From Candidatus Hopanoidivoransaceae bacterium (GTDB lineage Bacteria > Actinomycetota > Acidimicrobiia > Acidimicrobiales > Hopanoidiivorantaceae): 64,000 nucleotides of DNA. How positions within the stretch are numbered: the first letter of the stretch is position 1; every line of letters starts with the position of its first letter. A program made the translations under genes and the position numbers. Below are positions 7,896 through 54,084 of this stretch, one piece after another. The stretch lies in assembly GCA_965204495.1 (NCBI GenBank), contig OZ241989.1, positions 1,184,312 through 1,248,311 of the forward strand, written 5' to 3'. The notes under the pieces are model-generated. The model was not told where the DNA came from. It was given only the letters and a program-made list of their open reading frames with translations, and ran no database searches.

Positions 7896-7955
7896 TTTGG
7901 CCTCACGCAGAGAGAGCTGTGCATAGCACGGGGGGGGGTGTCGTAGACGACTTTT
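7861..7955. repeat. Pair of ~30-33-nt G9-containing direct repeats (period 65)
   Basis: 7861-7893 GCACGGGGGGGGGTGGTCTTAGGCAGCGACTTC versus 7926-7955 GCACGGGGGGGGGTGTCGTAGACGACTTT. The first copy encodes codons 2-12 of the giant gene and the second lies in its 5' UTR. Confidence 0.75.
7865..7873 (-). repeat. Homopolymeric C9 tract (coding strand) in codons 8-11 of the giant gene
   Basis: Plus strand reads GCAC-G9-TGG. On the coding strand this is ACC ACC CCC CCC CGT, in frame with ATG 7895. Confidence 0.9.
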
Positions 7956-7984
7956 TCCTATAGGGGTTTAATTTCATATAAGGT

Positions 7985-7993: not shown

Positions 7994-8031
7994 AGCAAGT
8001 GGATTATTGCAAGTCATGTGTCTGATTTGGT

Positions 8032-8817
8032 TCATGTGTCTGATTTGGTTGCTTTGATGATTTCCAAGAACGCTTTGCCTTCCAGCAACAGGGCATTGCT
8101 GATTTCTGCGTGTCGCCAAGCCATAGCAGTTCGTTTCACTGCTACGGCAGAGTGCATGTTCTTCTCAGCGATGGCTGTTGCGGCTGCGATGGCATCTTCC
8201 AGAAATGTCTCGGACACTTTGAACACCAGACCCATCTCTCTGGCTTCCTGAGCCCCTACCCATTCGGAGCTCAGCAGCAGCCACATGGCGTTCTGCCATC
8301 CGAGCAGCTGCGGCAGCAGCCAAGTGGATGCCGCCTCCGCCCCCACTCCCAGAGAGGTGAAGGGACATTTGAAGCGCGCCTGAGGCGAAGCGAATGCGAG
8401 GTCGGCGAACCCCAGCATGGTAGTTCCCAGCCCCACGGCTGCCCCGTTCACCGCCATCACCAGCGGTTTAGGGAAGCACTGCAGGGCTTGCAGCAGCTTC
8501 CAAGAATCGCCAGCTTCAGCATTGCCGGTTGCCTCGTCGCTTGCCTCGCTGCCTGCTTTATCGCTTGCCTCGCTGCTTGATGCCTCGTCTGGCAGCCCGC
8601 CCGTCAATGATGCCAGTTCTTTGAGGTCTATCCCCGCGCTGAAAGCTTTGCCCTCTCCTGTCAGCACCACTGCGCCTACGCTGCTGTCCTCGGCGGCGTC
8701 GCCAAGAGCGGCGTTCACCTCGTTGCGCAAGGCGTGATTAAAAGCGTTGCTGGCTTCGGGGCGACAAAATATCAGCACCTTCACCCGCCCTTTGGTCTGT
8801 GTCTTCAGCAAGCTCAT
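8032..8817 (-). CDS. Enoyl-CoA hydratase/isomerase (crotonase) family protein
   Basis: The track ORF is 8032..8835. The internal ATG at 8817 is preferred because AGGAG lies 6 nt upstream. Crotonase-type sequence VKVLIFCRPEASNAFN...VVLTGEGKAFSAGIDLKEL. It contains an acidic Ser/Ala-rich insert. Confidence 0.8.
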   Translation of the reverse strand: MSLLKTQTKGRVKVLIFCRPEASNAFNHALRNEVNAALGDAAEDSSVGAVVLTGEGKAFSAGIDLKELASLTGGLPDEASSSEASDKAGSEASDEATGNAEAGDSWKLLQALQCFPKPLVMAVNGAAVGLGTTMLGFADLAFASPQARFKCPFTSLGVGAEAASTWLLPQLLGWQNAMWLLLSSEWVGAQEAREMGLVFKVSETFLEDAIAAATAIAEKNMHSAVAVKRTAMAWRHAEISNALLLEGKAFLEIIKATKSDT

Positions 8818-8876
8818 GGGTTCTCCTGTCTGCATCGTTTCTGCTGGGATGTGCGCCGCGCACCGTTCTGCCTAAT

Positions 8877-9017: not shown

Positions 9018-9953
9018 ATGGAGACTTCCAGCACCGCCGCTCTCGCTTCGCAGAATTCTGGCTCGCTAGCTCTGGAAGTTGAAGACATCTCGGTTGTGTA
9101 TCAACGCTCCATCAAAGCCCTGCAGGGCGTGAGCCTCAAGGTGCCGGAGGGCGAGGTCGTGGCGATTTTGGGCGCCAACGGCGCAGGCAAGACTACCTTG
9201 CTCCGCACCATCAGCGGACTGCTGGGCTTTCACGGCGGGGCTGTTGCTTCGGGGTCGTATCGCCTGTGGGGGCGACCAGCCGAAAAGCTAGCCCCGCAGA
9301 CGATAGTGAGGCGGGGCTTGGCACAGGTAATGGAAGGCAGGCGCATCTTGGCGCAGCTTACAGTGGAAGAAAACCTTGACTTGGGCGCCATCTCGGTGAC
9401 TAAGAAAGAAGTCCGAGAGGCTAAGCCTCCAATCGTGGAAGAAAACCTTGACCCAGGCGCCATCTCGGTGCGCAGCCGCCGCGATACTGCCGACCGCAAG
9501 CACCCTCGGCTGTGGCCGATCAATTTGCTGCGTGAGAGCGTGCGCAGCCGCCGCGACACTGCCGCCCGCAAGCACAGCTTGTTCGAGCAGTTTCCACAGC
9601 TGAGCGACCGCCGGCATTCGGTGGCGGGCTATCTCTCTGGCGGGGAGCAGCAGATGCTCGCTATCGCCAGAGCGTTGATGAGCGATCCGCGCTTCATCAT
9701 TTTGGACGAGCCTTCGCTCGGCTTGGCCCCGATAATCGCCCATCAGATCGCCGACATCATCTCTGAGATAGCCGCCGGCGGCACGACGGTGCTGCTGGTG
9801 GAGCAGAACGCGGCTATGGCCCTTGCGCTGTGCCGCTATGCCTATGTGTTCCAGACGGGCAAGGTTGCGAAGGAGGGCACGGCTGAAGAGCTGCTGGACG
9901 ACCCATACATGCAAGAGCTTTATCTGGGGCTTGCCGGGGCAGACGCAGCATGA
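9018..9953 (+). CDS. livF: Branched-chain amino acid ABC transporter ATP-binding protein (LivF type) with two 24-aa insertions
   Basis: Walker A GANGAGKTTLL, signature LSGGEQQMLAIARAL, Walker B FIILDEPSLGLAP. Its stop overlaps the next gene's start (ATGA). Confidence 0.85.
   Translation: METSSTAALASQNSGSLALEVEDISVVYQRSIKALQGVSLKVPEGEVVAILGANGAGKTTLLRTISGLLGFHGGAVASGSYRLWGRPAEKLAPQTIVRRGLAQVMEGRRILAQLTVEENLDLGAISVTKKEVREAKPPIVEENLDPGAISVRSRRDTADRKHPRLWPINLLRESVRSRRDTAARKHSLFEQFPQLSDRRHSVAGYLSGGEQQMLAIARALMSDPRFIILDEPSLGLAPIIAHQIADIISEIAAGGTTVLLVEQNAAMALALCRYAYVFQTGKVAKEGTAEELLDDPYMQELYLGLAGADAA
9363..9575 (+). repeat. Two adjacent units of 36-nt duplication plus 36-nt insert inside livF
   Basis: A1 9363-9398 and A2 9435-9470 are 33/36 identical. 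B1 9468-9503 and B2 9540-9575 are 34/36 identical. The inserts 9399-9434 and 9504-9539 are unrelated to the flanks. Confidence 0.9.
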
Positions 9954-10834
9954 CTGAAGCAACTGCTGTCAAAGATTCGGCGTCTGCTGCGGGCCAATCG
10001 CAATCTGCTGCCAGCAGATCTGATGCTGAACTTCGCGGGGCAGAACTCAGCGAGGCAGAACCGCGCGGAGCAGAACTTCGCATAGAAAATGTGAGCTTCG
10101 GAGTGGGCGGCATCTCTATCTTGGAAGATGTCAGCCTCACGGTGCGGCCCGGCGAGCTGATGGGAATCATCGGGCCGAACGGAGCGGGCAAGTCTTCGCT
10201 GTTCAACTGCATCAGCGGCATATATGTGCCGACCGTCGGGCGCATCGCGTTGGATGGGCAGCCGCTCACAGGGCTGCGACCTGTGGCAGTCGCTCGCCGA
10301 GGCGTTGCCCGCACATTCCAAAATCTCGCGCTTTTTGACAACCTGAATGTCGCCGACAATCTCATGCTGGGCCGCCACCGTCTTATGCGCACGGGTTTCG
10401 CAACGGGTGCAGTGTGGTTCGGGCGGGCACGGCGGGAGGAAGCGATCCATCGCCAGGCTTGTGCTGAGCTTGTGGAACTGCTCGGCTTGGGAGCATCAGC
10501 GCATCTGCCTGTGGGGCTGCTGCCGTACGGGGCGCAGAAGCGAGTGGAGCTAGGGCGAGCTTTGGCGTCTTCTCCCGATGTGCTGCTGCTGGACGAGCCA
10601 GTGGCGGGGATGAACACGGAAGAGACCGAGCAGATGTCGGCGATCCTGCGAAACATCCACCAGCAGCTGGACATCACGATAGTGCTAGTGGAACACGATG
10701 TGCACATGGTGGTGGGCCTGGCCGAGCGCATCTGCGCGATCAACTTCGGCCAAGTGGTGACAGTGGACGAGCCGCAAGCCGTGGTGTCGCACCCGACGGT
10801 CGTGGAAGCCTATTTAGGGTCGGAGTGGTCGTAA
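9950..10834 (+). CDS. livG: Branched-chain amino acid ABC transporter ATP-binding protein (LivG type)
   Basis: Walker A GPNGAGKSSLFN, Walker B LLLDEPVAGMN. LivG-like C-terminus HPTVVEAYLG. Confidence 0.85.
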   Translation: MTEATAVKDSASAAGQSQSAASRSDAELRGAELSEAEPRGAELRIENVSFGVGGISILEDVSLTVRPGELMGIIGPNGAGKSSLFNCISGIYVPTVGRIALDGQPLTGLRPVAVARRGVARTFQNLALFDNLNVADNLMLGRHRLMRTGFATGAVWFGRARREEAIHRQACAELVELLGLGASAHLPVGLLPYGAQKRVELGRALASSPDVLLLDEPVAGMNTEETEQMSAILRNIHQQLDITIVLVEHDVHMVVGLAERICAINFGQVVTVDEPQAVVSHPTVVEAYLGSEWS

Positions 10835-11838
10835 TGAAAGACACCAGATCGCCACTCCACGACACTCTCGTCTATACCGCATGGACGCTCGGCGCGCTCG
10901 CAGCGGTCTTGCTCATCGTGTCTTTGGCCGACGGCGGCGACGGGCGGGAGAAGTTCCTGCAGCTGCTGGTTGGCGGCATCGCCTTGGGGAGCATCTATGC
11001 GCTCTTGTCGTTCGGCTTCGTTATCGTCTATAAAGCCACAGGCGTGTTCAACTTGGCGCAAGGCGGTTTCGTGCTGCTCGGCACATATCTGGCGTATCAG
11101 TTCTACACCGACTGGGGCTGGATGTTCGGGCTGGCTCTGGCGGCTGCCGTGCTCGCGATGGCAGCTATCGGGGCAGGCATAGAGCGGGCCGTGATGCGCA
11201 AAATGCTCACCAAGCCCACCTTCACAGCCATAATGGTGACGCTCGCCATCCTCATCGTGATAGAGCAGATCACTCGCAGCATCTGGAATTCGCCGGGTCT
11301 GGTGCTTGCCGCTCCCTGGGGCACAGGGCGCATTCAGCCCGGCGGCGTGACCATCCGATATCTGGATTTCTGGACGGTCGGCTTCACCTTCGTGCTGCTC
11401 GGGGCTTTCTTCTTGTTTTTCCGCTACACCCGCATCGGCTTGGGGATGCGAGCCACGGCTTTTGACAGAGAGGTAGCCTCGGCGCAAGGCGTGCGGGTGG
11501 GCTTGTCGTTCGCGCTTTCTTGGGCGATTGCCGCTGCCGTGGCGACCGTGGCCGGCGTTCTGCTCACGAGCCGCAGCGGGGGCGCGCTCACCCCTGCCAT
11601 CAGCTTTGTGGCCCTGCGGGCTTTCCCGGCGATGATCCTAGGCGGGCTGGATTCCGCAGGCGGAGCTGTGGCAGGCGGCGTGATAATAGGCGTGGCCGAA
11701 GTGATGGTGCAAGGCTATGTGGATGTGGACTGGCTTGGGGAGAGCTTTGAGACGGTGGTGCCGTATCTAGTAATGCTGCCGATCCTGCTATGGCGCCCCT
11801 CCGGTCTTTTCGGCACAAGAGCAGTGGAGCGGGTTTAG
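10834..11838 (+). CDS. livH: Branched-chain amino acid ABC transporter permease (LivH type)
   Basis: The track ORF starts at GTG 10825. ATG 10834 shares one base (A 10834) with the livG TAA stop (10832-10834) and has GGAG ~8 nt upstream. Multi-pass membrane protein in operon context. Confidence 0.8.
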   Translation: MKDTRSPLHDTLVYTAWTLGALAAVLLIVSLADGGDGREKFLQLLVGGIALGSIYALLSFGFVIVYKATGVFNLAQGGFVLLGTYLAYQFYTDWGWMFGLALAAAVLAMAAIGAGIERAVMRKMLTKPTFTAIMVTLAILIVIEQITRSIWNSPGLVLAAPWGTGRIQPGGVTIRYLDFWTVGFTFVLLGAFFLFFRYTRIGLGMRATAFDREVASAQGVRVGLSFALSWAIAAAVATVAGVLLTSRSGGALTPAISFVALRAFPAMILGGLDSAGGAVAGGVIIGVAEVMVQGYVDVDWLGESFETVVPYLVMLPILLWRPSGLFGTRAVERV

Positions 11839-15410: not shown

Positions 15411-15551
15411 CAAATTGGCAAAATGTGGTATTTAAATGCTATATCTTCTGCAAAGATATAGTATCAAGGGTGATATTTTGACAAAAGCTAGTCTTCATCC
15501 TCATGGCGAAGCCGAATTATGCGTTGCTTGGGCTTAGGCCGTTCTGGGATT

Positions 15552-16751: not shown

Positions 16752-18209
16752 ATGGGCGAAAGAATTGGCTCAGTGGAATACAGCCATGTTGACGCTGAGT
16801 ATTTCCAGAGACGCAGGCTGAAGCGGCACGCCGGCATTTGGTCGCTCTGGGCTCTTGGGGTGGGGGCGGTCATCTCCGGGGATTTCTTCGGGTGGAACTT
16901 CGGGCTTTCAGTCGGCGGGTTCGGCGGACTCTTGGTGGCTACAGGCATTGTCGCTCTAATGTATCTGGGAATTTGCTATTCCATAGCCGAGATGTCGCCA
17001 GCCATGCCGCACACGGGCGGGGCGTATTCTTTTGCCAGAACCTCAATGGGGCCTTGGGGCGGATATGTGACGGGGCTGGCTGAGAGCATTGAATACATAC
17101 TCACCCCTGCGGTCATAGTGGTGGGCATCGGCAGCTATGTCGGCCTTGCGATAGACGACATTTTCGGCGTGGATGTGCCTGCCCCTATATGGTGGCTGGT
17201 GTTCTACGGCATCTTCGTGGGCATAAACATCGCCGGCGTGGTTGCGACTTTCAGATTCACGATTTTCATCACATTTCTGGCTCTGGGCATCTTGCTCGTC
17301 TTCTGGATCGGGGCAATCCCGAATTTCAGCTGGAGCTTGGCCACCGACATTCAGCCAGAAGGCGGCAACTCGCGATTTTTGCCGTTCGGGTGGATAGGCG
17401 TGGCCGAGGCTATGCCCTTTGCCATCTGGTTTTATCTGGCCATAGAGCAGATTCCGCTGGCTGCGGAAGAGTCGCGCAATCCCAGCCGAGACATGCCCAA
17501 AGCTTTGCGCTGGGGGATTTTGACGCTGATTCTGGCTTCGGTTCTGACGCTGTTTTTGAATTCGGGCATTGAGCCTGGGGCTGGCGAGGTCGGCGAGAGC
17601 GAAGAGCCGTTGTTTCTGGCTTTCAGAGCTATTTTCGGAAGCGGCGTGGGCACTTCGGTTTTGGCTTTGGCGGCTGTTGCTGGCTTGGTTGCCAGTTTCC
17701 ATACGATTATCTATGCCTACGGGCGCAAGATATATTCGCTTGCGAGGGCTGGCTACTATCCTCGCCGTCTTTCTGAAACTCATCCCAAAACGCAGACTCC
17801 GCACTGGGCGCTGATAGCGGGGGCTGTTATCGGGTATTTGGTGGCGCTTTTGATTGAGTTCAGCGATGACTGGTTCGGAGAAGATGTGCGAGTGGGGGCT
17901 GTGCTGCTGAACATGGCGGTTTTCGGCGCGGTGATCTCCTATGCGATGCAGATGGCTTCTTTTGTGATTCTGCGGCGCAGGTTCGCAGCGATTGAACGCC
18001 CTTATGTGAGCCCTGTGGGCAGTGCTGGCGCGATCGTGGCTGGCGTGATCGCCTTGGCCACTCTTGTGTTCTTGTTTTTGAACTCCGATTATCGCTTGGG
18101 GGTTTACGGCTGCGCCATCTGGTTCGCTGTGGGGCTGGCGGTTTTTGCTGTGAGCGGGCGCAAGCGTCTGGTTCGGTCGCCTGAAGAGGAGTTTGCTTTA
18201 TCTCAGTGA
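16752..18209 (+). CDS. APC-family amino acid/ethanolamine-type permease
   Basis: 485 aa, ~12 hydrophobic segments. The N-terminus LKRHAGIWSLWALGVGAVISGDFFGWNFG resembles ethanolamine/amino-acid permeases. Confidence 0.75.
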   Translation: MGERIGSVEYSHVDAEYFQRRRLKRHAGIWSLWALGVGAVISGDFFGWNFGLSVGGFGGLLVATGIVALMYLGICYSIAEMSPAMPHTGGAYSFARTSMGPWGGYVTGLAESIEYILTPAVIVVGIGSYVGLAIDDIFGVDVPAPIWWLVFYGIFVGINIAGVVATFRFTIFITFLALGILLVFWIGAIPNFSWSLATDIQPEGGNSRFLPFGWIGVAEAMPFAIWFYLAIEQIPLAAEESRNPSRDMPKALRWGILTLILASVLTLFLNSGIEPGAGEVGESEEPLFLAFRAIFGSGVGTSVLALAAVAGLVASFHTIIYAYGRKIYSLARAGYYPRRLSETHPKTQTPHWALIAGAVIGYLVALLIEFSDDWFGEDVRVGAVLLNMAVFGAVISYAMQMASFVILRRRFAAIERPYVSPVGSAGAIVAGVIALATLVFLFLNSDYRLGVYGCAIWFAVGLAVFAVSGRKRLVRSPEEEFALSQ

Positions 18210-18288
18210 CATTTGCTGTGACATTTGCAGGGGCACTCGCAGTGACACTCGCATTGACATTTGCAGGGGCACTTGCAGCGACACAATT
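18205..18288 (+). repeat. 12-nt tandem repeat (AGTGACATTTGC-like, 6-7 copies; 36-nt super-period) starting on the permease stop codon
   Basis: AGTGACATTTGC TGTGACATTTGC AGGGGCACTCGC AGTGACACTCGC ATTGACATTTGC AGGGGCACTTGC AGCGACAC... The TGA at 18207-18209 is inside the first unit. Confidence 0.85.
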
Positions 18289-18399
18289 CGCCGCCGCATA
18301 ATGGCTAGACTTTGTTGCTAAGCTATTGCCAAGCAAAAATTGTCTGGCAGATAAACCGCTATTCAGAAATCTCAGAAAAGTTCACCTGAAAGGACACCC

Positions 18400-19806
18400 A
18401 TGAAACGCACACGCACTTTCGGCATTCTTGTCGCAGCAGTTATCAGCAGTTTGGCTTTGTTCGCCGCAGCTTGCGGCAACGATGACGATGATGCCGATAC
18501 TACCACAACCACTGCGCCGTCTGACACTGCCGCTCCTATGACTTCCGCAGCCCCAGAAACCACTGATGCGCCTTCTGGCACCGATGCTCCCGAGCCGACA
18601 GCGGCACCGCAGGCCACTACCGCAGCTCCGCCTACCACTGCCGGGCCGCCTGAGTCGACCATCGGCTTCGACGGCAGCACCATCACGCTCGGCTATCTCA
18701 CCGATGAGAGCGGAAGTCTCGCCATCGTAGGCACCCCGCTCAAAGAAGGCGCCGAAGTTTATTGGGAGTGGGTGAATCAGAACGAAGGCGGCGTGGCAGG
18801 CCAATACCCGGTCGAGCTGCTCGTGGCGGACACAAACGATAGTCCATCGCAGACCATCACCGAATATCAGCGCATCAAGGACGATGTGGTGATGTTCGCC
18901 GAGGTGCTTTCCACTCCGCCCACGCAAGCTCTGCTTGAGTTCCTTCAGGAAGACAACATCGTGGCCGTGCCCGGCTCGCTGGCCGGAGCATGGGCCGGCG
19001 AAGCCGTCTTGCTGCCGAACGGCGCAGCTTACGAATACGAGATGATCAACCTCGTGCAATGGTATTTGGAAGAGTCGGATCTGGCATCGGATAGCGATGT
19101 GCACTGCGCCGTGTATGTGGATGACAAATACGGCAATGACTCTATGCGCGGCGTGAACTACGCAACCGAGCAGTTGGGAATTGATTTGGCAGAAACCCAG
19201 ACCATCAACCGGGGCGACACCGACTTCACTGCGCAAGTCTCGGCCATGAACGATGCTGGCTGCACCGTCGTGTATGCGGTTACCGTGCCGACCGAGCAGA
19301 ACGGCATGTTGGCCCAAGCTGACGCCATAGACTTCAACCCCGTTTGGCTGGGCGCGCTGCCTTCATACCTCAACTTGTTCGCAGCCGGTCGTCCCGAGCT
19401 TTACACCAACTTCTATGTGGCTTTGGACTCTCCGAACCTCAACGACACTTCAGTGCCCGCCATGGCGGATTTCATAAACAGGTTTGAAGATATCAACGGC
19501 GGCTCGCCCAACACCTTCCACCTGTCGGGCTATTTCCAATCGGTAGCCGTTCATGCTCTGCTGGATAAGGCAGTGGAACTGGGCGATCTGAGCCGTGACG
19601 GAATAGCCGCAGCAATGGCGCAACTAGGCGAAGTAGACAACGCCGGGCTTGCCGCCGAGAACTATGTGTATGGACTGCCCGCAGACCGCGTGCCCACCAG
19701 CGCGACTCGCATCTTCAAATTTGACCGCGATCAGCCCCCCAACTTCCTAAACGAAGTCCAAATCTACGATTCGCCCCTGAACGAGAGCTTTGACTTAGTG
19801 GGCTAG
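18400..19806 (+). CDS. ABC transporter substrate-binding lipoprotein (Liv/PBP1 type)
   Basis: Lipobox LFAAAC, Thr/Pro/Ala-rich linker, and a size and sequence style typical of branched-chain amino acid binding proteins. Confidence 0.7.
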   Translation: MKRTRTFGILVAAVISSLALFAAACGNDDDDADTTTTTAPSDTAAPMTSAAPETTDAPSGTDAPEPTAAPQATTAAPPTTAGPPESTIGFDGSTITLGYLTDESGSLAIVGTPLKEGAEVYWEWVNQNEGGVAGQYPVELLVADTNDSPSQTITEYQRIKDDVVMFAEVLSTPPTQALLEFLQEDNIVAVPGSLAGAWAGEAVLLPNGAAYEYEMINLVQWYLEESDLASDSDVHCAVYVDDKYGNDSMRGVNYATEQLGIDLAETQTINRGDTDFTAQVSAMNDAGCTVVYAVTVPTEQNGMLAQADAIDFNPVWLGALPSYLNLFAAGRPELYTNFYVALDSPNLNDTSVPAMADFINRFEDINGGSPNTFHLSGYFQSVAVHALLDKAVELGDLSRDGIAAAMAQLGEVDNAGLAAENYVYGLPADRVPTSATRIFKFDRDQPPNFLNEVQIYDSPLNESFDLVG

Positions 19807-19854
19807 CGGGCTAGCGAGGCTGGCGAGATTGCCTAGCCCTAGTCTCCGAGCGCC

Positions 19855-20640
19855 CTAATCTCCGAGCGAAGTCAGGATGTTTGCGAACTCCTGCCGTTCG
19901 GCATCTGTGAGGGCGGCGTAGTCGTTGGCGGTTAGGCGGTTCGTTTCTGCTTCTATTTGCTGACGCCTTTCCTTTAGGTGCGAGACATCGGGGAAGGGCG
20001 GCTGCCATTGGAACATCTGAGCTATGCCTTCGCCTCCCGGGCTCGACAGGATGGCTTCTAGCGGGGTCATGCCGTCTGAGAGGATGGCTACGGAGTGGCG
20101 GGCGAAGCGCAGCTCTCGCAGCAGATGCAGCATGTGCGCTGCTCGGGCGGGGGTGTCGGAGGGGCGATCGACCGAACGCCAGCCGCAGAAGAGCGGGGCC
20201 GCAGTAGGGGATGCGGCATCTGCGATTTTGGCTGCCAGCTCGCAGAAGCGGGCAAGCTCTGGGGTGTCTTCCAGGTTGGCGCGACCCCAGTCGTGGCAGG
20301 CGGGAGCGTAGTAGTGGTGAGCGGTGGGTATTGGATTGACATGTTTGACAGTCTCGTTCCACATGGTGCTCAGCGGCTCTGGGGCGACGACCACAGCGGC
20401 AGCTGCAACCTGTTCTCCATCCGTATTGCCCATCACGCCGAAGCGTCCTGCTATATAGCTGGCCATTCCGTCTAGGGGAGCTTGGCCTTCGGGGGGCGGT
20501 TCGCATCCTTCGGTGAAGACATCGCCTTGGGTGGCTCCTACTTCGGCTGCTTTGGCGAAAGTGGCCATGTCCAACATGAACTTTCCGCCCCAGTTGCGTA
20601 TCGGGTCGCCTGTGGCTTCTGCGCATTGAAGTGGGGTCAT
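19855..20640 (-). CDS. Conserved hypothetical protein (261 aa)
   Basis: Clean ORF with AAGGAG upstream of ATG 20640. No motif I can name with confidence. Confidence 0.55.
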   Translation of the reverse strand: MTPLQCAEATGDPIRNWGGKFMLDMATFAKAAEVGATQGDVFTEGCEPPPEGQAPLDGMASYIAGRFGVMGNTDGEQVAAAAVVVAPEPLSTMWNETVKHVNPIPTAHHYYAPACHDWGRANLEDTPELARFCELAAKIADAASPTAAPLFCGWRSVDRPSDTPARAAHMLHLLRELRFARHSVAILSDGMTPLEAILSSPGGEGIAQMFQWQPPFPDVSHLKERRQQIEAETNRLTANDYAALTDAERQEFANILTSLGD

Positions 20641-20682
20641 CTTTTGCTCCTTTGAGTTGAGTGTTTATGCGATTTTTGGGGT

Positions 20683-20845
20683 GTTTTCTATTGATTTATT
20701 GCTGCTGATAGGTGTTTCTAGTGACTTTCTGCTGCTGATAGCTGTTTCTAGCGATCTTCTGAGGCTAGTGATTTTCTGGTGCTAGTGATCTTCTCGGGCT
20801 AGATAGGTGTTGCTAGTGATTTTCTGGGGCTAGTGATCTTCTGGG
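20683..20845. repeat. Tandem array of 16-30-nt units derived from the 3' end plus stop codon of the SDR gene
   Basis: Read on the minus strand: CCAGAAGATCACTAG (the last codons PEDH plus stop of the SDR gene), followed by CCAGAAAATCACTAGC, CGAGAAGATCACTAGC, CCAGAAAATCACTAGC, TCAGAAGATCGCTAG and more. Confidence 0.85.
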
Positions 20846-21696
20846 ACGAAGCGAACTTCGTCTGAAGAAAGAAATCCCAGATCTTTGGCGATTTCTTGGG
20901 CTAGCACTATTTTCAAGGGGTCGTGCGCTTGGAGGCCGTCTTCTGCGATCCACGCGATTGCTTTGCCCACTGGGTCAGGCGGCGCGCCGCCCATCTCGTG
21001 CACCAAACGCAGCCTTGAACCAGCTGCACTCACCCGCTCGGTGAAGACCACACCGGGATCGACGCTCAGCACTTGAATGCCTTGCCCCTCGTGTTCTTGA
21101 GCCAAGCAGGGGGCTAGTCGGTTGAGCCCCGCCTTGGTAGCGGAGTAAATCAAGCCGGATGCGCCGTCTTCTGAGAGGCGTAATGCTCTGCTGTGGCTGG
21201 CCTGCGAAGAAAGGTTGATGATGACTCCGCCCTTGGGCTGGCCGTTTTCGCCAGGCTCAGACATTATCTGCAGAGCCCGCTGGGTGATAAGAAGCTGGGC
21301 GGTGAGGTTGCACCAGATGCGCTTTATGATGTGTTCTGGGTCGACGGTTGTGAAGAGGTCGGTGTTGCTCGGCCCCACATAGATGGCGTTGTTCACCAGC
21401 ACATCCAGCCTGCCCCAGCGTTCGTATACCGTGTCTACAGCCGGCGCCAGAGTTTCTTCTTCCAGCAAGTCCAAGCGCACTCCCAAGCTCTGCTGCCCGC
21501 AGGCGCGAATGGCTTCTTCGGTTTCGCTCAAGCTGCCGGGCAGCACGGCTCCGGTTTCGGGTGCAATGGCAGACGGGTCTCCGGGGTTTATGGTGCGGGC
21601 TGTGACCGCCACATCAAAGCCTCGCTCCGCCAGAGCGACTGCAGTCGCCTTGCCGATGCCTCGGCTAGCCCCCGTAACGAGTGCGACTTTCGGCAC
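20830..21696 (-). CDS. SDR-family oxidoreductase
   Basis: N-terminal VALVTGASRGIGKATAVALAERGFDV; YxxxK-type region SATKAGL. Confidence 0.85.
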   Translation of the reverse strand: MPKVALVTGASRGIGKATAVALAERGFDVAVTARTINPGDPSAIAPETGAVLPGSLSETEEAIRACGQQSLGVRLDLLEEETLAPAVDTVYERWGRLDVLVNNAIYVGPSNTDLFTTVDPEHIIKRIWCNLTAQLLITQRALQIMSEPGENGQPKGGVIINLSSQASHSRALRLSEDGASGLIYSATKAGLNRLAPCLAQEHEGQGIQVLSVDPGVVFTERVSAAGSRLRLVHEMGGAPPDPVGKAIAWIAEDGLQAHDPLKIVLAQEIAKDLGFLSSDEVRFVPEDH

Positions 21697-23490: not shown

Positions 23491-23753
23491 GGTTGTGCTC
23501 CTTCATTTGGCTGGAATGCTAGATTTTGGCTGTCTTGGGCGCCGGGCTGGCCTCTGGTTTGCTTGTGCGTCTAGCTTGGTTGTCGTCTAGCTGGCTTGTG
23601 CGCCCTGTGCCTATGCTATCAGAGCCTACGACAGGCATTGCCTGTTCTCACCGCCTGTTCTGCCGCAAGGCCAACTTCTAGCCGACTGCGACTGGCATAG
23701 CAAGATATGGCAATCGCAGTCGGGGCGGGGGGCTGTGATATCTGCCGAAGCGT

Positions 23754-33675: not shown

Positions 33676-33807
33676 CTTGGTCTCCTTTAGTTTTGTCTGC
33701 GCTGCTTGGTTTTGCCTTGGTGTCTAGCTTTGGCAGTGTCTAGCTCTGGGATTGATTTTCAAGTTATCCACCTGTATTTTGCGCGCTTAATTTGTGCGCG
33801 TTTCAGC

Positions 33808-35928
33808 TTAGTTGATGCGCCGCCGTGCCAGCCGCAGGGAATTTCCTACCACGCAAAGAGACGACAAGCTCATCGCTCCCGCAGCTGCCACGGGAGGCAT
33901 CACGCCGGCTGCTGCCAGCGGAAGCAGAGCCGCGTTGTAGATGCAAGCCCAAACCAGATTGGCCAAGATGGTGGAAGAAGTCTTGCGGGCGATCTGTATG
34001 GCTTTGACCGATTTGCGAAAATCGCCGCCGATAACGGTGATGTCGCTGGCTTCGGCGGCCACATCTGCTCCGTCCGACAGGGCTATTCCCACATCGGCTT
34101 TGGCTAATGCCGCAGCATCGTTCACACCGTCGCCGATCATGGCGACTGTGCTGCCTGCTTCTTGCAGGCGGTTCACTTCGGCGAGTTTGTCTTGGGGGAG
34201 GCATTCGGCGATAACTCTGTCGGGCTTTACCTGTTCGGCCACATGCTGTGCACTTGCTTCCGAATCGCCGGTCGCCATTATCACCGAGATGCCGAGCGAC
34301 TGCATGTCTGCGACCGATTGGTTCGCCTCGTCGCGCAGCTCGTCGGCGCAGATGATGAGACCTTTGGCTTGGGGGAGTTGGGCAACGCTGCCCCAGCCCA
34401 CGAAGACGCTCGCAAAACCTTTGGCGGCAGCGGAACTCGCGGCCTCGTCTAGGCGGTCGGGAATTTCCGAAAATAAACTGCGAGCTCCCAAAGCTGCTTT
34501 GCTGCCGTCTTTGAATTCGGCTAGAACGCCTGCTCCAGGAGTTTCCTTTAAGTCGCGGAACTCTATGGAAGATTCGCGTTCTCTGGCGATTGCCTGCGAA
34601 AGAGGATGAAGCGATTGCTGAGCAAGGGCTGATGCTATTTCGAGCAGTTCAGTTTGAGTTGCATCTCTTTTTTGCGCTGTATTTCTTGTTTGTTCTGTGT
34701 CTCCTTCTTGCGCTGTGTCTGCCTCGTGCGCTGTGCCTGCTTCGTTGTTAAGGCCTGCTTCTTGGGTCAGATTTTTTCCTCGCAGCAGCCCGTCCGTGAA
34801 ATCGTCTACCACGATCTGCCGAACGGACGGGCGGCCGTGGGTGAGCGTGCCAGTCTTGTCTATGACGGCGGTGTCGAGACGGCGAACCGCTTCCCACACA
34901 TTGCCGCTTCTGATGATGATGCCTTCTCTGGCAGCCCGCCCGACACCCGCCACGATAGCTGTGGGGGTTGCCAAGCCCAGAGCGCACGGGCAGGCCACCA
35001 CCAGCACGGCAACTCCAGCGGCGATGCCTGTGGCGGCGCTTTCGCCAGCCAGCATCCAGCCGATGAAAGCGATAGCGGCGGCAGCTATTACCGCCGGAAC
35101 GAAGACCGCACTGGCACGATCCACCAGCCGTTGCACGGGGGCGCGAGACTGCTCGGCTTCTTCCAGCAGCCGCATGATTTGGGCGTGGGCTGTTTCGGCA
35201 CCCACCCGCCGGGCTTCCACCGTAAGGAGACCGGTGGTGTTCAGCGTGGCTCCTGTGACTTCATCGCCGGGCTGCACCGCTTCTGGGATCGGCTCGCCGG
35301 TGAGGAACGACTTGTCTATGGCGGAGTGCCCTGATAACACCACTCCGTCTGCGGCTATGCGTTCGCCCGGTCGCACCACGAAGCGCATTCCTACGGCGAG
35401 GTCTTCAATCGGAATGTCGGTGCCGTGTTCTAGGCGTGCTGTGGTGACGCTGAGCTTGGCGAGCGAGGCGACCGCATCTTGCGATCTGGCTTGGGCGCGG
35501 CTTTCCAGCCATCCCCCCAGCCGCACGAAGACGATGATCGTGGAAGCCATCGTGAAGTGGATGTCGCCGCTGGTGTCTGTTGTCGTCACCGACATCGACC
35601 AGATCCAGGCCACCAGCACACCCAGCGATATGAGCGTGTTCATATTGGGGGAGCGGGCCAGGGTGCTCGTCCAGCCGTCTCGCAGGATCGGCCATCCCAC
35701 TCCCCACACCACTATTGTTGAGAGCGCGCTCAAAAGCCATTCTTGATTGAGCGGAGAAGAGTCGGGCAGCAGCCAGACGACCCAGCCGAAAGCTGCCGCC
35801 AACGCCCCGAACAGCAGGATCAGCCCGTCTAGACGGGTAGAGGCGGCTGGGGTGTGGCAAGAGGGGGTAGGAGAGTGGCAGGATACCCTCTCTGTGGCTA
35901 AAGCCCGTTCATCGTATGTCAAAGACAT
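33808..35928 (-). CDS. copA: Heavy-metal (Cu+-type) translocating P1B-type ATPase without an obvious N-terminal metal-binding domain
   Basis: CPC (VVACPCALGLATP), DKTGTLT, GDGVNDAAAL, and the YN and MSLSS transmembrane motifs. A low-complexity insert follows DKTGTLT. Confidence 0.85.
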   Translation of the reverse strand: MSLTYDERALATERVSCHSPTPSCHTPAASTRLDGLILLFGALAAAFGWVVWLLPDSSPLNQEWLLSALSTIVVWGVGWPILRDGWTSTLARSPNMNTLISLGVLVAWIWSMSVTTTDTSGDIHFTMASTIIVFVRLGGWLESRAQARSQDAVASLAKLSVTTARLEHGTDIPIEDLAVGMRFVVRPGERIAADGVVLSGHSAIDKSFLTGEPIPEAVQPGDEVTGATLNTTGLLTVEARRVGAETAHAQIMRLLEEAEQSRAPVQRLVDRASAVFVPAVIAAAAIAFIGWMLAGESAATGIAAGVAVLVVACPCALGLATPTAIVAGVGRAAREGIIIRSGNVWEAVRRLDTAVIDKTGTLTHGRPSVRQIVVDDFTDGLLRGKNLTQEAGLNNEAGTAHEADTAQEGDTEQTRNTAQKRDATQTELLEIASALAQQSLHPLSQAIARERESSIEFRDLKETPGAGVLAEFKDGSKAALGARSLFSEIPDRLDEAASSAAAKGFASVFVGWGSVAQLPQAKGLIICADELRDEANQSVADMQSLGISVIMATGDSEASAQHVAEQVKPDRVIAECLPQDKLAEVNRLQEAGSTVAMIGDGVNDAAALAKADVGIALSDGADVAAEASDITVIGGDFRKSVKAIQIARKTSSTILANLVWACIYNAALLPLAAAGVMPPVAAAGAMSLSSLCVVGNSLRLARRRIN

Positions 35929-37819: not shown

Positions 37820-37942
37820 GACTGTCAATGAAACCCAGCTACTGCTTTAAAAGTCTGAACCGAGAACACGCGTCATTTTCAACTAGTGAAACTGTCAACT
37901 AGGTAAAACTGCCAACCCGATGAAATTCTCAATCCGCTAGCA
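37820..37942 (+). repeat. Five copies of a ~17-nt CTGTCAAC...GAAA-type unit between cas4/cas1 and the binding-protein gene
   Basis: GACTGTCAATGAAA (right after the cas4/1 stop), TTTTCAACTAGTGAAA, CTGTCAACTAGGTAAAA, CTGCCAACCCGATGAAA and TTCTCAATCCGCTAGCA. Confidence 0.6.
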
Positions 37943-37944
37943 TT

Positions 37945-39204
37945 ATGTTGATGAAATTCGTTATTTGTAAATCACTTGCTGCAGGCATAGCAATCCTGTC
38001 TGCTCTGTCGCTTTTTGCGGCTGCTTGCGGAGGCGATGATGGCAATGGCGGAGACGCGGATGCCGTGTCTGGCAGTGTCTTGAAGCTCGGCTACATCCTG
38101 CCTCAAACCGGCAGCTTGGCTTATTTGACAGATGCTATGGAAAACGGTGCGGCATTGGCAGTGGAGGAAGTCAATCGGGAGGGTATTCAAGAGATAGAGA
38201 TGGTAGCCGGCGACTCTGGCACCAATGCCGATGTAGCCAACAACACGGCCGACAGCCATATTGCCGAGGGCGTGCAGGGCATTGTCGGTGCGGGGGCATC
38301 GGCTGTTTCATTGGCAATCATCGACAAAATCACCGGCGTGGGGCTTCCGATGATCTCGCCGTCTAACACCTCTCCAGCTTTCACCGCCTATGACGACAGC
38401 GAGCTTTATTTCCGCACAATCGCTTCGGATGTGCTGCAAAGCAGGGTGATCGCCGACCTTATCGCCGAGGACGGCGCACGCCGAGTGGCCATCATGTATC
38501 GTGCCGATGCCTACGGAAAGGCTTTGGCTGACGCTTCCGAGCAAGGTCTTATCGCCAACGGCGTGGAATCCGCAGGCAAGTTCGCTTTGGATCCCGAAGG
38601 CAGCACCTTCACATCTGAGGTGCAGGAGGTTGCGGCATCGGGGGCCGATGCTGTGATTTTGATTGCGTTTCGCGAAGGCGGGCGGATCATCGCCGAGATG
38701 ATTGAGGCTGAAATCGGGCCAGGCGACATCGCTCTGTATGTGACGGCTGGTTTGGCTGTAGCCGATCTATGGGAGTTGGTCAATCCAGAAGATCGTTCGG
38801 CGGTGCAGGGAATACGAGGGACGCGCACCGGCGAGAGCGAGTCGGCTGAGCGGACTTTCAGAGATCGCTTTGCGGAATTCGCGCCTGGCGTGGATGATGC
38901 TTATGCTCCCGAAGCCTACGATGCGGTGGTGATCTATGCCTTGGCTGCTTTGGCGGCGGGAAGCAATCAGGCATCGGATTTTGCGTCTGAAATCAATGGC
39001 GTGACTCGTGGGGGCACAAAGTGCTCGCTGTATGCAGATTGCGCCGAGCTGGTGATGGCGGGTGAAGACATTGATTACGAAGGCGCGGCTGGTTCGCTGG
39101 ATTTCGTGGATGCCGGCGAGCCGAGCGTAGCGACTTTTGACATTTTGGAGTTTGATGCCGAGGGTGAAATCGTGGTGCTTTCGTCTAGGACGCTTCGGGG
39201 TTAG
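37945..39204 (+). CDS. ABC transporter substrate-binding lipoprotein (Liv/PBP1 type) located between cas4/cas1 and cas2
   Basis: Lipobox LFAAAC. LKLGYILPQTGSLAYL...GIVGAGASAVSLAI resembles branched-chain amino acid binding proteins. Confidence 0.75.
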   Translation: MLMKFVICKSLAAGIAILSALSLFAAACGGDDGNGGDADAVSGSVLKLGYILPQTGSLAYLTDAMENGAALAVEEVNREGIQEIEMVAGDSGTNADVANNTADSHIAEGVQGIVGAGASAVSLAIIDKITGVGLPMISPSNTSPAFTAYDDSELYFRTIASDVLQSRVIADLIAEDGARRVAIMYRADAYGKALADASEQGLIANGVESAGKFALDPEGSTFTSEVQEVAASGADAVILIAFREGGRIIAEMIEAEIGPGDIALYVTAGLAVADLWELVNPEDRSAVQGIRGTRTGESESAERTFRDRFAEFAPGVDDAYAPEAYDAVVIYALAALAAGSNQASDFASEINGVTRGGTKCSLYADCAELVMAGEDIDYEGAAGSLDFVDAGEPSVATFDILEFDAEGEIVVLSSRTLRG

Positions 39205-39226
39205 GATGCTTCGGGGTTAGGACGCG
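39186..39226 (+). repeat. 16-nt unit TAGGAYGCTTCGGGGT x2.5 spanning the stop codon of the binding-protein gene
   Basis: TAGGACGCTTCGGGGT (coding) TAGGATGCTTCGGGGT TAGGACGCG. The true stop TAG is at 39202-39204. Confidence 0.85.
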
Positions 39227-39389: not shown

Positions 39390-39686
39390 ATGAGTCGGAA
39401 TACCTATCTGGTCGCCTACGACATTTGCGGCGATGAAAAGCGTTTGCGGAAAATCCACCAATGCATGTGCGGGTATGGCTACTCTCTGCAATACTCGGTG
39501 TTCTTGTGCTCGCTGGATCAGGTTGAGCTGATCGACCTGAAGATGGATGTGAGCGAAATCATGAACCACAGAGACGACAGCGTAATGATCGTGTCACTAG
39601 GCCCCTCAGAAACGGCGGTGGAAAGTCATTTTGAATTCATGGGAGTCACCCCACCGAAATTTGACGAGGGAGCGGTCATCGTCTAG
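39390..39686 (+). CDS. cas2: Cas2
   Basis: 98 aa, YLVAYDICGDEKRLRKIHQCMCGYGYSLQYSVFLC. GAGGGA RBS. Immediately upstream of the leader and array. Confidence 0.85.
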   Translation: MSRNTYLVAYDICGDEKRLRKIHQCMCGYGYSLQYSVFLCSLDQVELIDLKMDVSEIMNHRDDSVMIVSLGPSETAVESHFEFMGVTPPKFDEGAVIV

Positions 39687-42391: not shown

Positions 42392-44062
42392 TTAGAAATC
42401 TAGGTCTGGGGCGGGTTCTAGTTGTCCTGCTGACAGGGGGGTTTCTGCTTCGCTTTCTGTGAGGAACACCACGTCGCCGTCTATGAATTGTGGTCGTAGG
42501 GGGTCTTTTCTGTGATACAAATTGCAGGGCTCTAGCACTCTGTAATTTTTGCCCTTGGTCACACCGCCTCTCAAAATCATCTCTTGGACTGATTGAGCGT
42601 TCACAGCCAGCAAGAAAACAGCCAATGGCAATTCACCGATGCCTAGAGGGTGATGTTCGGGGCGAACCACAGGGCTGCGTGGTGTCACCATGTATGAGTT
42701 TCCCCTGAATTTTTCTTTCTCTTCTACAAGTTTTTTTAATCCCTTCAGATGATGATCCTTTGAGTTTCCTACTTCAAACGCCAAGGGATCCTCTGTCTCT
42801 CCGCCGAAAATGAAATCTACCTCATATGTTTCTCTTAGGCGCCAATATTCCAGAGTCATCCAACTGTTCTCTGCCAGCTCTTTTAATGCCGCTCCCGCCG
42901 CATTTTCCAGCACATGGCCTTTCTTTGGGAGATCTTCCAGCCCTGATGTCCCCATTCTCCTAACGGCCGAAGGAACGGCTGGGTCAAAGAAGCAGTATTT
43001 CTGGTTGCCAGCCTTCCGCATCGGTGCGTCGGAATAGGCGTCTAGTCGGAAGAGAATGTTCGCATTCTCCAAATGGGAGAGATATGTGCTTGTTGTTTTT
43101 CCCTGAGCTTCGCCCAGCTGTTTGCCAATCTTGGCAACTGTGGTCTGCTTGCCGAGCAGACCCGCGACAGAATGCATTACGGCCTCAAGAGTTTTCCGAT
43201 CTCTGACATCATGGAAGGCAACTATGTCTTTGTCAACCGCCCTGCCTACTACCTCTTTGAGGTATCCATGATCCCGTCTGACCGCTGCTCTGAGGCTCGG
43301 GTTATGCGTGGAATGGTCATATCCAGTGATGCACACGGGGTATCCGCCTGTGATGAGGTATCTGTCCAGAGCAGTCGCTACCTGCTCGGGAACGGGCGAG
43401 ACCTGCGGGATTGATTGAAGCCGTGCTCGCAAAGATGGATATCCTGTTCTGCACCATTTTGGAATGATGCTGGCATCGCCGAAAACAAATTCGCACCATT
43501 CCATGAAATTGCAAGCCATCAAGCGATATTCTGCCCAGCGGTCTGGGCCGCTTTCTGGTTTGCGCTTGTCGTTATTGGCAAGGATCATCCCAGAACTGGA
43601 AGACGCTAAAACTCTGATGGGTCTGTTTTGAGCGAGAAGATTTTTTAGCCACAGGTCCCAGTCGTCGCTTGCTCCTATCTCGTCCAAGAACAGAAAAATC
43701 GGCTCATCGATGCTGGCATCGGGGCACAGCAGCAACAAGGCATCTGCTATCGCCCCTAGATTTTCCATCTGAAGCTCCGGGTGATCCAGTTCCACGAAAA
43801 AGATGCGCTCTCTGGGTATTCCCTTGTCTAGCAAGCTGTCAATAGACTGCCAAAGCAGCGTGGTTTTGCCAGACCTGCGGGGGCCCAGCACAAGATGGTA
43901 GCATCGCGGGTCGTCTCGGATGAGGGTGTCGGGCAGAACTCGCATCATGTGCCTGTGCTTGGGCAGGGATTTCTCCGTCAGCTCGGACGAGTCTGTTTTC
44001 CACCCGTTCTGATCCTCGAGTATTTCTTGGAAGCGGGGTATGTCTATGTATTGAAATGCCAT
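42392..44062 (-). CDS. AAA+ ATPase of the COG1373 type (AAA_14 plus DUF4143-like), second copy
   Basis: Walker A GPRRSGKTT and Walker B FLFLDEIGASDDW. The track start is 44098; ATG 44062 (MAFQYIDI) has GGAGG 7 nt upstream. AT-richer than the array and the cas4/1 region. Confidence 0.75.
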   Translation of the reverse strand: MAFQYIDIPRFQEILEDQNGWKTDSSELTEKSLPKHRHMMRVLPDTLIRDDPRCYHLVLGPRRSGKTTLLWQSIDSLLDKGIPRERIFFVELDHPELQMENLGAIADALLLLCPDASIDEPIFLFLDEIGASDDWDLWLKNLLAQNRPIRVLASSSSGMILANNDKRKPESGPDRWAEYRLMACNFMEWCEFVFGDASIIPKWCRTGYPSLRARLQSIPQVSPVPEQVATALDRYLITGGYPVCITGYDHSTHNPSLRAAVRRDHGYLKEVVGRAVDKDIVAFHDVRDRKTLEAVMHSVAGLLGKQTTVAKIGKQLGEAQGKTTSTYLSHLENANILFRLDAYSDAPMRKAGNQKYCFFDPAVPSAVRRMGTSGLEDLPKKGHVLENAAGAALKELAENSWMTLEYWRLRETYEVDFIFGGETEDPLAFEVGNSKDHHLKGLKKLVEEKEKFRGNSYMVTPRSPVVRPEHHPLGIGELPLAVFLLAVNAQSVQEMILRGGVTKGKNYRVLEPCNLYHRKDPLRPQFIDGDVVFLTESEAETPLSAGQLEPAPDLDF

Positions 44063-44411
44063 CGTTCTACCTCCGTTATCTGAATTATGTATCTGCATTA
44101 TACATGTTTTTCAGTTATATGACAACCTATTTTGTTGATGATTTTGCCATATATTGGAGATTGATAGCATTTTCTAGGATTTTAAGGCTTATAGAACTGG
44201 AAATCTTGGAATATCTAGAATATAGATATCCAAATTCCAAGAAGCTAGATTTGTCCATCACAGACGGAATTAGCTTGCCTAATTCGCTTCTGCTATGTTT
44301 GTGCCGGCGCAGGCGAGTGAAGTGGTCGGCGTGTCAGTGATTGTGCCGTATGTGACCTGCCGAGAGCACGGCATCGATTATCTCTGCGGTTAGTGCTTTC
44401 ACCGCGCCGGC

Positions 44412-47362: not shown

Positions 47363-48294
47363 CTAATTGCTATTGGCTGTCCGCCAGATTATTTGGGGTG
47401 GACTGAAGGTGCCATAGCCACCTTGATCTGAGCGCAGTATCTGCGATTGCAGAATTCGGGATATTCCCCATGATGGATAGAAGTGGCTACGATTTTCTGG
47501 TGTTAAGCTGGTGGCTTGTGCGAGGAGGGCAATCACGGTTCCAAATCCTGCGGGGCGAATCCAAAGAGGCCAAGTATATTTTCCCTGTTTCCAACCACCT
47601 GAGCAACCAAGTGTTAAGGTTCTCTTGCCGTCTTGCCTTGAAAATACTGGATGTCTGCTAAACCCTAAAATTGCTAGAGCTTCGGGACCAGGATTTGTGT
47701 ATTTGTCGGTAGTGGATGGGTTGGAGGCTGATAAGGCGTAAACACGGTCGTCAACTATATCCCACATTAATGATTCTTTTTTGCTTTGATATGGCCAAGG
47801 GCCAATAAGACCTTCGGTTATATCGTCTTCAGTTGCGGAAGTAAGAATTTCTTGTGCCATGCTAAGAAATTTTTGTTGGCCTGCTGTGAAGTAGAGATCG
47901 TTTGGTTTGGCTATATTATTGTTGTCATAGCTTCCTTCGGCTATCAATGCTGTGGCAAATTCGCTACCAATTTGTCCAACTGACGACATGAGGTATTCTC
48001 TAACCGTTTCATCAGAGAACTTGGCTTTTTCTTTTTCTGCTTTTGTCCCAAGCTTTGGAGCCAGAGCAGGGCTTTTTGCCCATTTGGGGAAGACTGCCAT
48101 TGCTTGATCTACTATTTTTTCCACTGGGTAAGCCTCGCTGACGATGGCATGGGGGATGACATCGTTTGACCACCAGAGCTTGGGTTGGTCGGGCTCGTCG
48201 GCGAAGAGGACTTGGACACCTAGGGCGGCAAAGAAGCCTAGGGGGTTGGTGCCGTCTAGTCCGGTCAGGTGAATGCCTTCGTATGCTTGGGTCA

Positions 48295-48295
<1 letters not shown>
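47363..48295 (-). CDS. Short Cas8u-family (Csb3/Csx17-like) putative large subunit
   Basis: The ATG at 48295 overlaps the cas3 TGA. The N-terminal LTGLDGTNPLGFFAALGVQVLFADE resembles the PLG..LKALGV..L motif I recall at Csx17/Cas8u N-termini. Last gene of the effector operon. Confidence 0.5.
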
Positions 48296-52777
<4,482 letters not shown>

Positions 52778-54013: not shown

Positions 54014-54084
54014 GATTTTCTCCTTGATGGCTTGTCTGTGTTTTGGGTGTTCTGCTGTTGGGTAGGGTGTCAAATCGCAATTGC

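Follow-up and report, generated by a model that had tools for sequence, protein, structure and literature searches.

Stop-anchored tandem copies of terminal codons at gene ends in an acidimicrobial lineage

Variable tandem repeats as such are commonplace in bacteria, and several described systems place them between genes. The mycobacterial interspersed repetitive units (MIRUs), reportedly described by Supply et al. in 1997, are said to form a dispersed family of 40-100-bp units with a shared consensus, lying between operon genes, with repeat reading frames that overlap the flanking stop and start codons and with variable copy number. In Ehrlichia ruminantium, a genome with a small coding share, intergenic tandem repeats with units of about 150 bp reportedly expand and contract actively (Collins 2005; Frutos 2006); to our knowledge, stop-codon anchoring is not a known feature of these repeats. 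Marine Beggiatoaceae carry intergenic TAACTGA repeats, one conserved heptamer genome-wide with stops in all three frames, most of which point to a start codon a short way downstream and which have been proposed to be regulatory or mobile; they can overlap just the very end of the upstream open reading frame (ORF), and some sets overlap upstream stops (PMC4679880). In prokaryotic intergenic regions generally, 10-mers repeated within 50 nt (close direct repeats) are over-represented (PMC4060949). Here we analyse a 64,000-nt stretch of a Candidatus Hopanoidivoransaceae bacterium of the order Acidimicrobiales (contig OZ241989.1, positions 1,184,312 to 1,248,311; hereafter the window), in which the last codons and the stop codon of a short-chain dehydrogenase (SDR) gene on the minus strand are reiterated in tandem downstream of the gene.

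Like ordinary bacterial variable-number tandem-repeat (VNTR) or minisatellite-type arrays, the repeats of this lineage are head-to-tail copies, present above chance, of locus-specific units; close relatives differ in how many copies they have and how these are arranged, older copies decay, and the periods inside genes are in frame. Unlike ordinary VNTRs, they are anchored on stop codons, the last codons of the gene itself serve as the first unit, and they occur clade-wide at about 11% of genes. With MIRUs they share the setting, namely actinobacterial intergenic tandem repeats at flanking stops with variable copy number, but their units of 7-19 nt (30-36 nt at the higher order) are unrelated between loci and have no shared consensus of the MIRU type. 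As in the TAACTGA repeats and the cyanobacterial short tandemly repeated repetitive (STRR) heptamers, intergenic tandem repeats bring in stops in all frames; instead of a single unit, however, each locus here has its own, copied from the local coding end. The likeness to E. ruminantium lies in non-coding DNA being made and resized throughout a lineage through the gain or loss of tandem units, visibly between strains, and the difference in the shortness of the units and their anchoring on stop codons. Extra stops shortly downstream of the real one also recall fail-safe tandem stops, which are in frame by definition, whereas the frame here is essentially random and shows no in-frame excess. What appears to be new is the lineage-wide tandem re-copying of terminal codons together with the stop codon; within a limited coverage of the literature, we found no published stop-anchored duplication of terminal codons, nor tandem repeats in Acidimicrobiia.

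The SDR array and its counterparts at other gene ends

The SDR gene (20830..21696, minus strand; Pfam adh_short, E 3e-35) ends with CCA GAA GAT CAC TAG (20844..20830), and the array is founded on this stretch of four codons and the TAG, CCAGAAGATCACTAG. From this stop to the ATG of the next gene lie 189 nt, which consist nearly entirely of repeats up to the ribosome-binding site. Directly downstream of the stop, Tandem Repeats Finder (TRF) detects five units of 14-17 nt (20748..20829, minus), each carrying its own TAG: CCCAGAAAATCACTAGC (20828-20812), AACACCTATCTAGC (20811-20798), CCGAGAAGATCACTAGC (20797-20781), ACCAGAAAATCACTAGC (20780-20764) and CTCAGAAGATCGCTAG (20763-20748). These are the most homogeneous part of the array, and it is here that copy number varies among relatives. 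Two 30-nt higher-order units of the AAACAnCTATCAGCAG plus CAnnAAnTCAnTAG type follow (20688..20747, minus; TRF period 30), the first being AAACAGCTATCAGCAG+CAGAAAGTCACTAG (20747-20718) and the second AAACACCTATCAGCAG+CAATAAATCAATAG (20717-20688); they are older, more diverged copies. The most distal, decayed unit, AAAACACCCCAAAAATCGCATAA, has TAA at its end (20665..20687, minus). The array does not include the conserved 24 nt, ACACTCAACTCAAAGGAGCAAAAG (20641..20664, minus), that form the leader and Shine-Dalgarno sequence of the HTH_67 gene downstream. TRF scores the whole as a period of 17 with 5.9 copies (20748-20845, score 98) and a period of 30 with 2.1-2.4 copies (20680-20761, scores 96-100). 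The original prediction, which was made from the letters and an ORF list, was right about the SDR gene end on the minus strand, the coordinates, the sequences of the units and the higher-order unit of 30 nt.

Agreement with the gene-end unit drops with distance from the stop, from 14-16 matching positions in units 1, 3, 4 and 5 (10-16 over all five stop-proximal units) to 8-12 in the distal ones. Within the window, the motif ATCACTAG is restricted to this array. The spacer contains seven TAG and two TAA, which close all three frames within 45 nt; the nearest in-frame stop comes 15 codons past the SDR stop (+45 nt). On the mRNA strand the spacer is composed of 44% A, 28% C and 14% G, with A+C at 72%.

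Four further sites had been named in the original prediction (18205, 19800, 19855 and 39186), and all are real by TRF and by the sequence itself. At 18204..18284 (plus), 12-nt units with a 36-nt higher order occur in 6.7 copies, starting with the CAG TGA of an amino-acid permease gene (16752..18209). Units of the GGGCTAGC type with a period of 8-9 and about three copies (19796..19827, plus) start from the last codons and TAG of a binding-protein gene (18400..19806). The HTH_67-family gene downstream of the SDR array (19855..20640, minus; Pfam PF21863, E 2.6e-27) ends in CTCGGAGATTAG, followed by GGCG CTCGGAGACTAG, and TRF detects a 16-nt duplication across its stop, GCTCGGAGATTAGGGC / GCTCGGAGACTAGGGC (19836..19868, minus). 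At 39186..39225 (plus), the 16-nt unit TAGGACGCTTCGGGGT is repeated 2.5 times and includes the stop of another binding-protein gene (37945..39204). Additional to these sites is an exact 18-nt duplication, ACCAAATCAGACACATGA x2 (8014..8050, minus; TRF, 100% identity), which comprises five codons plus TGA at the end of an enoyl-CoA hydratase gene (8032..8835; Pfam ECH_1); this one exact event is open to breakpoint inspection and shows 1-nt microhomology there. At 15534..15551 (minus) lies AATCCCAGAACGGCCTAA, which has diverged from the thiolase gene end (...ATCTTGGAGAGGCTCTAA) of which it is an old copy, and CGCACAAATTAA at 33787..33807 (minus) may be an older copy of the end of gene 33808..35928, CGCATCAACTAA, although the match is weak (9/12 positions). 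The units differ by locus, as seen from CCAGAAGATCACTAGC, CAGTGACATTTG, GGGCTAGC, TAGGACGCTTCGGGGT and ACCAAATCAGACACATGA. The predicted location between co-directional genes applies to the SDR array but not to the arrays at 19796-19868, which lie between convergent genes.

Duplications also occur elsewhere: across a start codon, mid-spacer and in frame within genes. A 16-nt unit repeated 2.6 times (23559..23602, plus), upstream of the amidohydrolase start and present in the window only, adjoins no stop, so the duplication process is not confined to stops; a 17-nt unit repeated 2.3 times (37879..37916, plus) lies 60 nt past one stop and 29 nt ahead of the next start. Over positions 8000-64000, to which the window statistics are confined because a giant minus-strand gene occupies the window start, we counted 24 arrays, with 6 on a stop, 2 on a start, 2 purely intergenic and 14 within genes. 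The gene calls of the window are our own and not an annotation.

Within genes, in-frame tandem repeats with periods of 6, 12, 15, 18 and 30 were seen in 24703-26424, 27156-28601, 28896-30167, 33808-35928 and 36005-37819. They often lie near the 5' ends of the genes, and ACCACA-type hexamer runs are found at 25114-25159 and 27603-27628.

Enrichment at stop codons and turnover among relatives

The clade loci comprise the window and syntenic loci of its relatives, about 150 kb of sequence in total. The syntenic loci were obtained via homologues of the HTH_67 protein; exact-protein look-ups with the window SDR and amidohydrolase gave no match. L044/L045 and L046/L047 have about 97% nucleotide identity to the window. 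The HTH_67 protein is 89% identical to that of the window in L048 and about 51% identical in L049 (a 2.25-Mb contig) and L051, while L001 (OY282367.1, an uncultured Acidimicrobiales metagenome-assembled genome) encodes an SDR with 77% identity to the window SDR.

We scored a stop as copied when the final 12 nt of the gene, including the stop, recurred with at most one mismatch no more than 45 nt downstream. In seven clade loci, such a near-exact copy was present at 13 of 118 stops (about 11% of genes), against a positional background of 0.39% measured on five of these loci (binomial p 2e-15). The same pipeline applied to 42 unrelated loci as an outgroup yielded a single copy at 356 stops (Fisher p 9e-8), and the mirror test at clade start codons yielded 1/111 (p 0.0014). 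At the stops of L052, a more distant actinobacterial locus with 73% GC, no copies were found. The pattern is a clade signature beyond chance.

Consistent with this, TRF arrays are 3.3 times as dense in the clade as in the 42 unrelated loci (4.7 vs 1.4 per 10 kb), with a larger difference in intergenic DNA (18.3 vs 3.2, 5.7x) than in coding DNA (3.25 vs 1.19, 2.7x). Coding arrays of the clade have a period divisible by 3 in 26/31 cases (84%). We further measured intergenic tandem-repeat coverage by distance over about 110 kb (window 8-64 kb, L001, L044 and L046). Coverage is 25.6% at 0-19 nt from a stop, 17.0% at 20-39 nt, about 5-10% at 40-99 nt and 0% at 100 nt or more; the corresponding values from a start are 4.7%, 4.7%, about 10% and 0.8%. 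Tandem repeats overlap 12/65 stop boundaries vs 4/67 start boundaries. The enrichment at stops over other intergenic positions, on which the original prediction had staked itself, thus holds in this modest sample.

The copy-number comparison with relatives that had been proposed also revealed differences, even among genomes with about 97% identity: the SDR spacer measures 189 nt in the window, 182 nt in L044 and 129 nt in L046, and the differences sit in the stop-proximal units. The window shares one 30-nt unit with L044 and L046, and a recognisable remnant of it is left in L048, as judged from a by-eye spacer alignment. The leader and Shine-Dalgarno sequence of the HTH_67 gene have hardly changed in L044 and L046 and differ at a few more positions in L048. 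L044 and L046 lack the 81-nt permease array, their spacer there being 64 nt long vs 190 nt in the window. In a MAFFT alignment of the window with the ~97%-identical loci, from which indel positions alone were used because gap placement is arbitrary inside repeats, indels of at least 4 nt over 14 kb fall almost all at gene boundaries; a 9-nt in-frame GAGCCAGCA insertion lies within a gene.

Orthologous spacers carry arrays of different units, each matching its own gene's end, and past the thiolase, HTH_67, binding-protein (SBP) and CoA-transferase genes the downstream copies are written in the synonymous codons of the genome concerned. In both the window and L001 the C-terminus of the HTH_67 protein is SLGD*, with copies of CTCGGAGATTAG in the former and TCCCTAGGCGACTGA in the latter; this stop duplication is absent in L044 and L046, and L001 has its own 17-nt version made from its own codons. 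At the binding-protein gene end (window 19796..19827), L044 carries GGCTAGC two to three times and L048 an 18-nt duplication instead, which at L048 3140-3190 extends across both convergent stops (HTH_67 TAG and binding-protein TGA, originally just 6 nt apart) and leaves both proteins intact. The thiolase ends ILERL* everywhere, and a copy then follows at the equivalent position in the window, L044, L046 and L001. Two more 19-nt units identical to the CoA-transferase gene end GGCGTAGTGGAATAG come after it in L049; in L051, the gene end and unit 1 both carry another variant, and unit 2 still has that of L049.

The SDR gene itself illustrates the order of events. L048 has the C-terminus VPEDH* of the window with no homogeneous array, just remnants of the distal units, so the coding end preceded the array, which was copied from it. 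The founding codons are part of a 12-residue C-terminal tail, SSDEVRFVPEDH, of the form SSDEVRFVPE[D/N]H (window 20830-20868), which is confined to the sub-clade of the window, L044, L046 and L048. The SDR of L001, L049 and L051 stops twelve residues earlier (...ELGYL*), and unrelated repeats are found at that site: L001 has three copies of GCGTTGTAA as well as a pair of 19-22 nt, and L049 and L051 have (GCTAA)3-4. Since the tail is absent from these three loci, the reiterated codons belong to a young extension, which to judge from the sequences probably arose by reading into a former spacer. In L044, the SDR ends PENH* via the variant GAAAATCAC, which is the second unit in the window.

In-frame and start-codon events are also present in L001. 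A 30-nt in-frame repeat at the 3' end of its permease gene (9408-9500) adds ten residues, ALSQSAPPQS/ALSQSDPPQS; a 15-nt in-frame repeat in its SDR gene (6762-6801) inserts (G/D)IEG units; and a 17-nt duplication extends across its SDR start codon (5973-6006).

On the upstream side of the SDR gene, the window ORF, with a GTG start, abuts the amidohydrolase stop (21694-21699), unlike L044 (4662-4823) and L046 (8927-9088), where a 162-nt spacer precedes an SDR gene with an ATG start; whole spacers are thus gained or lost between close relatives. The window genes 9950..10834 and 10825..11838 overlap, and L044 and L046 have extra sequence there with GAGTGGTCGTAA copies.

Stop codons of the clade are rich in TAG, which ends 59/116 genes in the window, L001, L044, L046, L049 and L051, and 24/33 in L049 and L051 together; in unrelated loci of similar GC the count is 39/138. 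Many clade genes end ...GCTAG, followed by C.

Origin of the arrays

On balance we favour, with moderate confidence, an explanation in which the SDR array results from short tandem duplications that arise at an elevated rate throughout the lineage and are filtered by selection. Short units of about 7-19 nt would duplicate in tandem at a high rate, and some would re-duplicate as 30-36-nt higher-order units. We infer that replication slippage or template switching is the probable source of these duplications and that the persisting copies are neutral. A duplication that includes the stop codon would leave the protein untouched and lengthen the spacer, so that the copy could persist; inside genes, mostly in-frame duplications would survive; near start codons and ribosome-binding sites, duplications would mostly be removed, since a second start would act as a decoy for initiation. 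From two copies on, units could be gained or lost by slippage or unequal exchange while older copies decay by point mutation, and this would produce the identity gradient past the SDR gene. Since these units include the end of the gene itself, such exchange could also alter C-terminal residues. The extra stops in three frames and the unstructured A/C-rich RNA would be by-products.

A high duplication rate combined with this sieve would account for the elevation in both coding and non-coding DNA, the locus-specific units, the stop/start asymmetry, the rapid turnover and the lack of a common motif. The sieve predicts an asymmetry of the kind seen at stops and starts, both for near-exact copies (13/118 vs 1/111) and for boundaries overlapped by repeats (12/65 vs 4/67). 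Among the three readings put forward in the original prediction, a genome-specific slippage signature is the best supported, as the pattern is shared by the clade and nearly absent in the 42 unrelated loci, the units are locus-specific and copy number differs.

Several points weigh against this explanation. Tandem-repeat coverage peaks at stops and is near nil in the interiors of long spacers, whereas a uniform process followed by a sieve should give similar coverage in unconstrained spacer, unless these interiors are constrained or hold unannotated genes. The thiolase-end copy is kept in place where the SDR proteins are only 77% identical, and its persistence at such deep divergence could mean selection. 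In five of six independent two-copy events with a period of 16-18, the right breakpoint falls 0-3 nt past the stop, out of a possible 0-15 (p ~0.006 in a post-hoc test on six events). Moreover, the orthologous spacers in the sample are non-independent, the sample is modest (~150 kb) and two of the tests were post hoc.

The peak within 20 nt of stops, the near-zero coverage at least 100 nt from genes and the breakpoint bias would be expected if duplication were targeted to where translation, or translation-coupled transcription, ends. Damage from R-loops or polymerase stalling where ribosome cover stops might then lead to re-copying of the preceding ~12-16 nt. Two of the six events reproduce five codons and the stop exactly and in frame, and unit sizes concentrate at 16-19 nt; copies resemble the gene end less the farther they lie from the stop, and it is the units nearest the stop that vary. 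Yet duplications as long as these are also present at a start codon, mid-spacer and in frame within genes, the breakpoint test has L048 as a counter-example, and a gradient with instability near the stop is what any array would show in which the youngest units resemble each other most. We know of no termination-coupled duplication mechanism. That the clade possesses a process tied mechanistically to the end of translation, in which the stop and the four to five codons before it are copied again with a breakpoint at the stop, is a tentative proposal to which we give a minor share of the probability. A selected function, whether as extra stops in three frames, as an insulating spacer or as an unstructured A/C-rich leader that aids translation of the next gene, seems to us less likely still. 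All three frames are indeed closed within 45 nt of the SDR stop, A+C make up 72% of the spacer, and its RNA folds less than shuffles (210-nt spacer RNA, minimum free energy -15.5 kcal/mol, z +1.14); the thiolase-end copy persists across deep divergence; and the TAG-rich stops of the clade (59/116) might accompany unusual termination. However, the duplicated stop is in frame in just ~7/16 events, vs 1/3 expected, and past the SDR gene the nearest in-frame stop is 15 codons away. Array composition is wholly different elsewhere, being G-rich at 19796, 19836 and 39186 and G/T-rich in L001, and arrays appear and vanish between 97%-identical genomes without compensation. One published survey reports no selection for additional stops in bacteria (PMC6764699), and together with the frame counts this speaks against the selected back-up stops that had been suggested originally.

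An array of binding sites, operators or iterons for the HTH_67 regulator or another DNA- or RNA-binding protein, is improbable. The array does lie directly upstream of a helix-turn-helix family gene and its units share a CTAG-centred core, but in L048, L001, L049 and L051 the HTH_67 gene is conserved and the upstream spacer lacks these units. In addition, ATCACTAG occurs nowhere else in the 64 kb, and the same phenomenon is seen where no regulator gene follows and where the two genes converge. Searches for known elements agree: Rfam at the gathering threshold gave 0 matches in the window, no promoter-like site was found in a scan of 18100-21000, and six terminator-like matches in the same interval include none within the SDR array. 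Units differ between genes and between orthologous spacers, and the originally proposed protein- or RNA-binding arrays are largely refuted by this non-conservation. Chance or assembly artefact, finally, has next to no credibility. The sources are metagenome assemblies, but the same arrays occur in independently assembled contigs from different pipelines (L044 = L045, L046 = L047), the repeats also occur in L049 and L051, contigs whose names suggest long-read assembly, and chance is countered by the tests against the positional background (p 2e-15) and the outgroup loci (p 9e-8).

Some further candidates were rejected. A riboswitch or attenuator does not fit an RNA that folds less stably than shuffles, and an intrinsic terminator or repetitive extragenic palindromic (REP)-type element fits neither this weak folding nor the lack of a terminator-like site within the SDR array. 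Rho loading on C-rich, G-poor RNA would suit the SDR array (C 28%, G 14%) but not the G-rich arrays elsewhere or the G/T-rich L001 ortholog. Target-site duplications left as footprints of transposon excision do not match multi-copy arrays with units of 7-19 nt.

If the favoured explanation, a high duplication rate under a selective sieve, is right, intergenic DNA in this lineage is made from coding 3' ends, with spacers growing from 18-64 nt to about 190 nt among ~97%-identical genomes. The same process would edit C-termini, as in the D to N change of the L044 SDR, the 10-residue repeat of the L001 permease and the young 12-residue SDR tail, and would be a concrete, datable source of spacer birth and C-terminal novelty in streamlined bacteria. 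The lineage would also offer a comparative-genomics route to the genes behind an unusual tandem-duplication rate. Were the process instead tied to termination, gene ends would be a growth zone for spacers and a route to C-terminus remodelling, and a stop-proximal excess and breakpoint bias that held genome-wide would point to an undescribed link between termination and DNA instability. The arrays will mislead gene-end calling and intergenic alignment in such metagenome-assembled genomes.

Other features of the window

Beyond the stop-anchored repeats, the window contains a CRISPR array of about 33 repeats (39969-42362), with the 36-nt repeat CTATCGGGGGGCAGTCCGCCCCCCCTTCATTGAAGC at a period of 71-72. 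Cas2 (39390..39686) lies on one side of it and a DUF4143 ATPase gene (42392..44098) on the other. Beyond the latter are cas3 with a C-terminal HD domain (48295..51144), Cas_GSU0054 (51131..52777) and Cas_GSU0053 (52781..54073); two ORFs near the cas genes (45223..46659 and 47363..48355) have no Pfam match. The cas genes at 39390-54073 look like a type I-U/I-G set.

At the window start, positions 1-7967 are occupied on the minus strand by a single ORF, which exceeds 2,650 codons and continues beyond the start of the window. The plus-strand ORFs in this interval have no Pfam matches and are shadows of the giant minus-strand ORF. The latter consists of about 25 diverged repeats of ~300 nt (~100 residues) with the motif ...DGSYTISCGDATG..., and its product looks like a giant repetitive surface-type protein.

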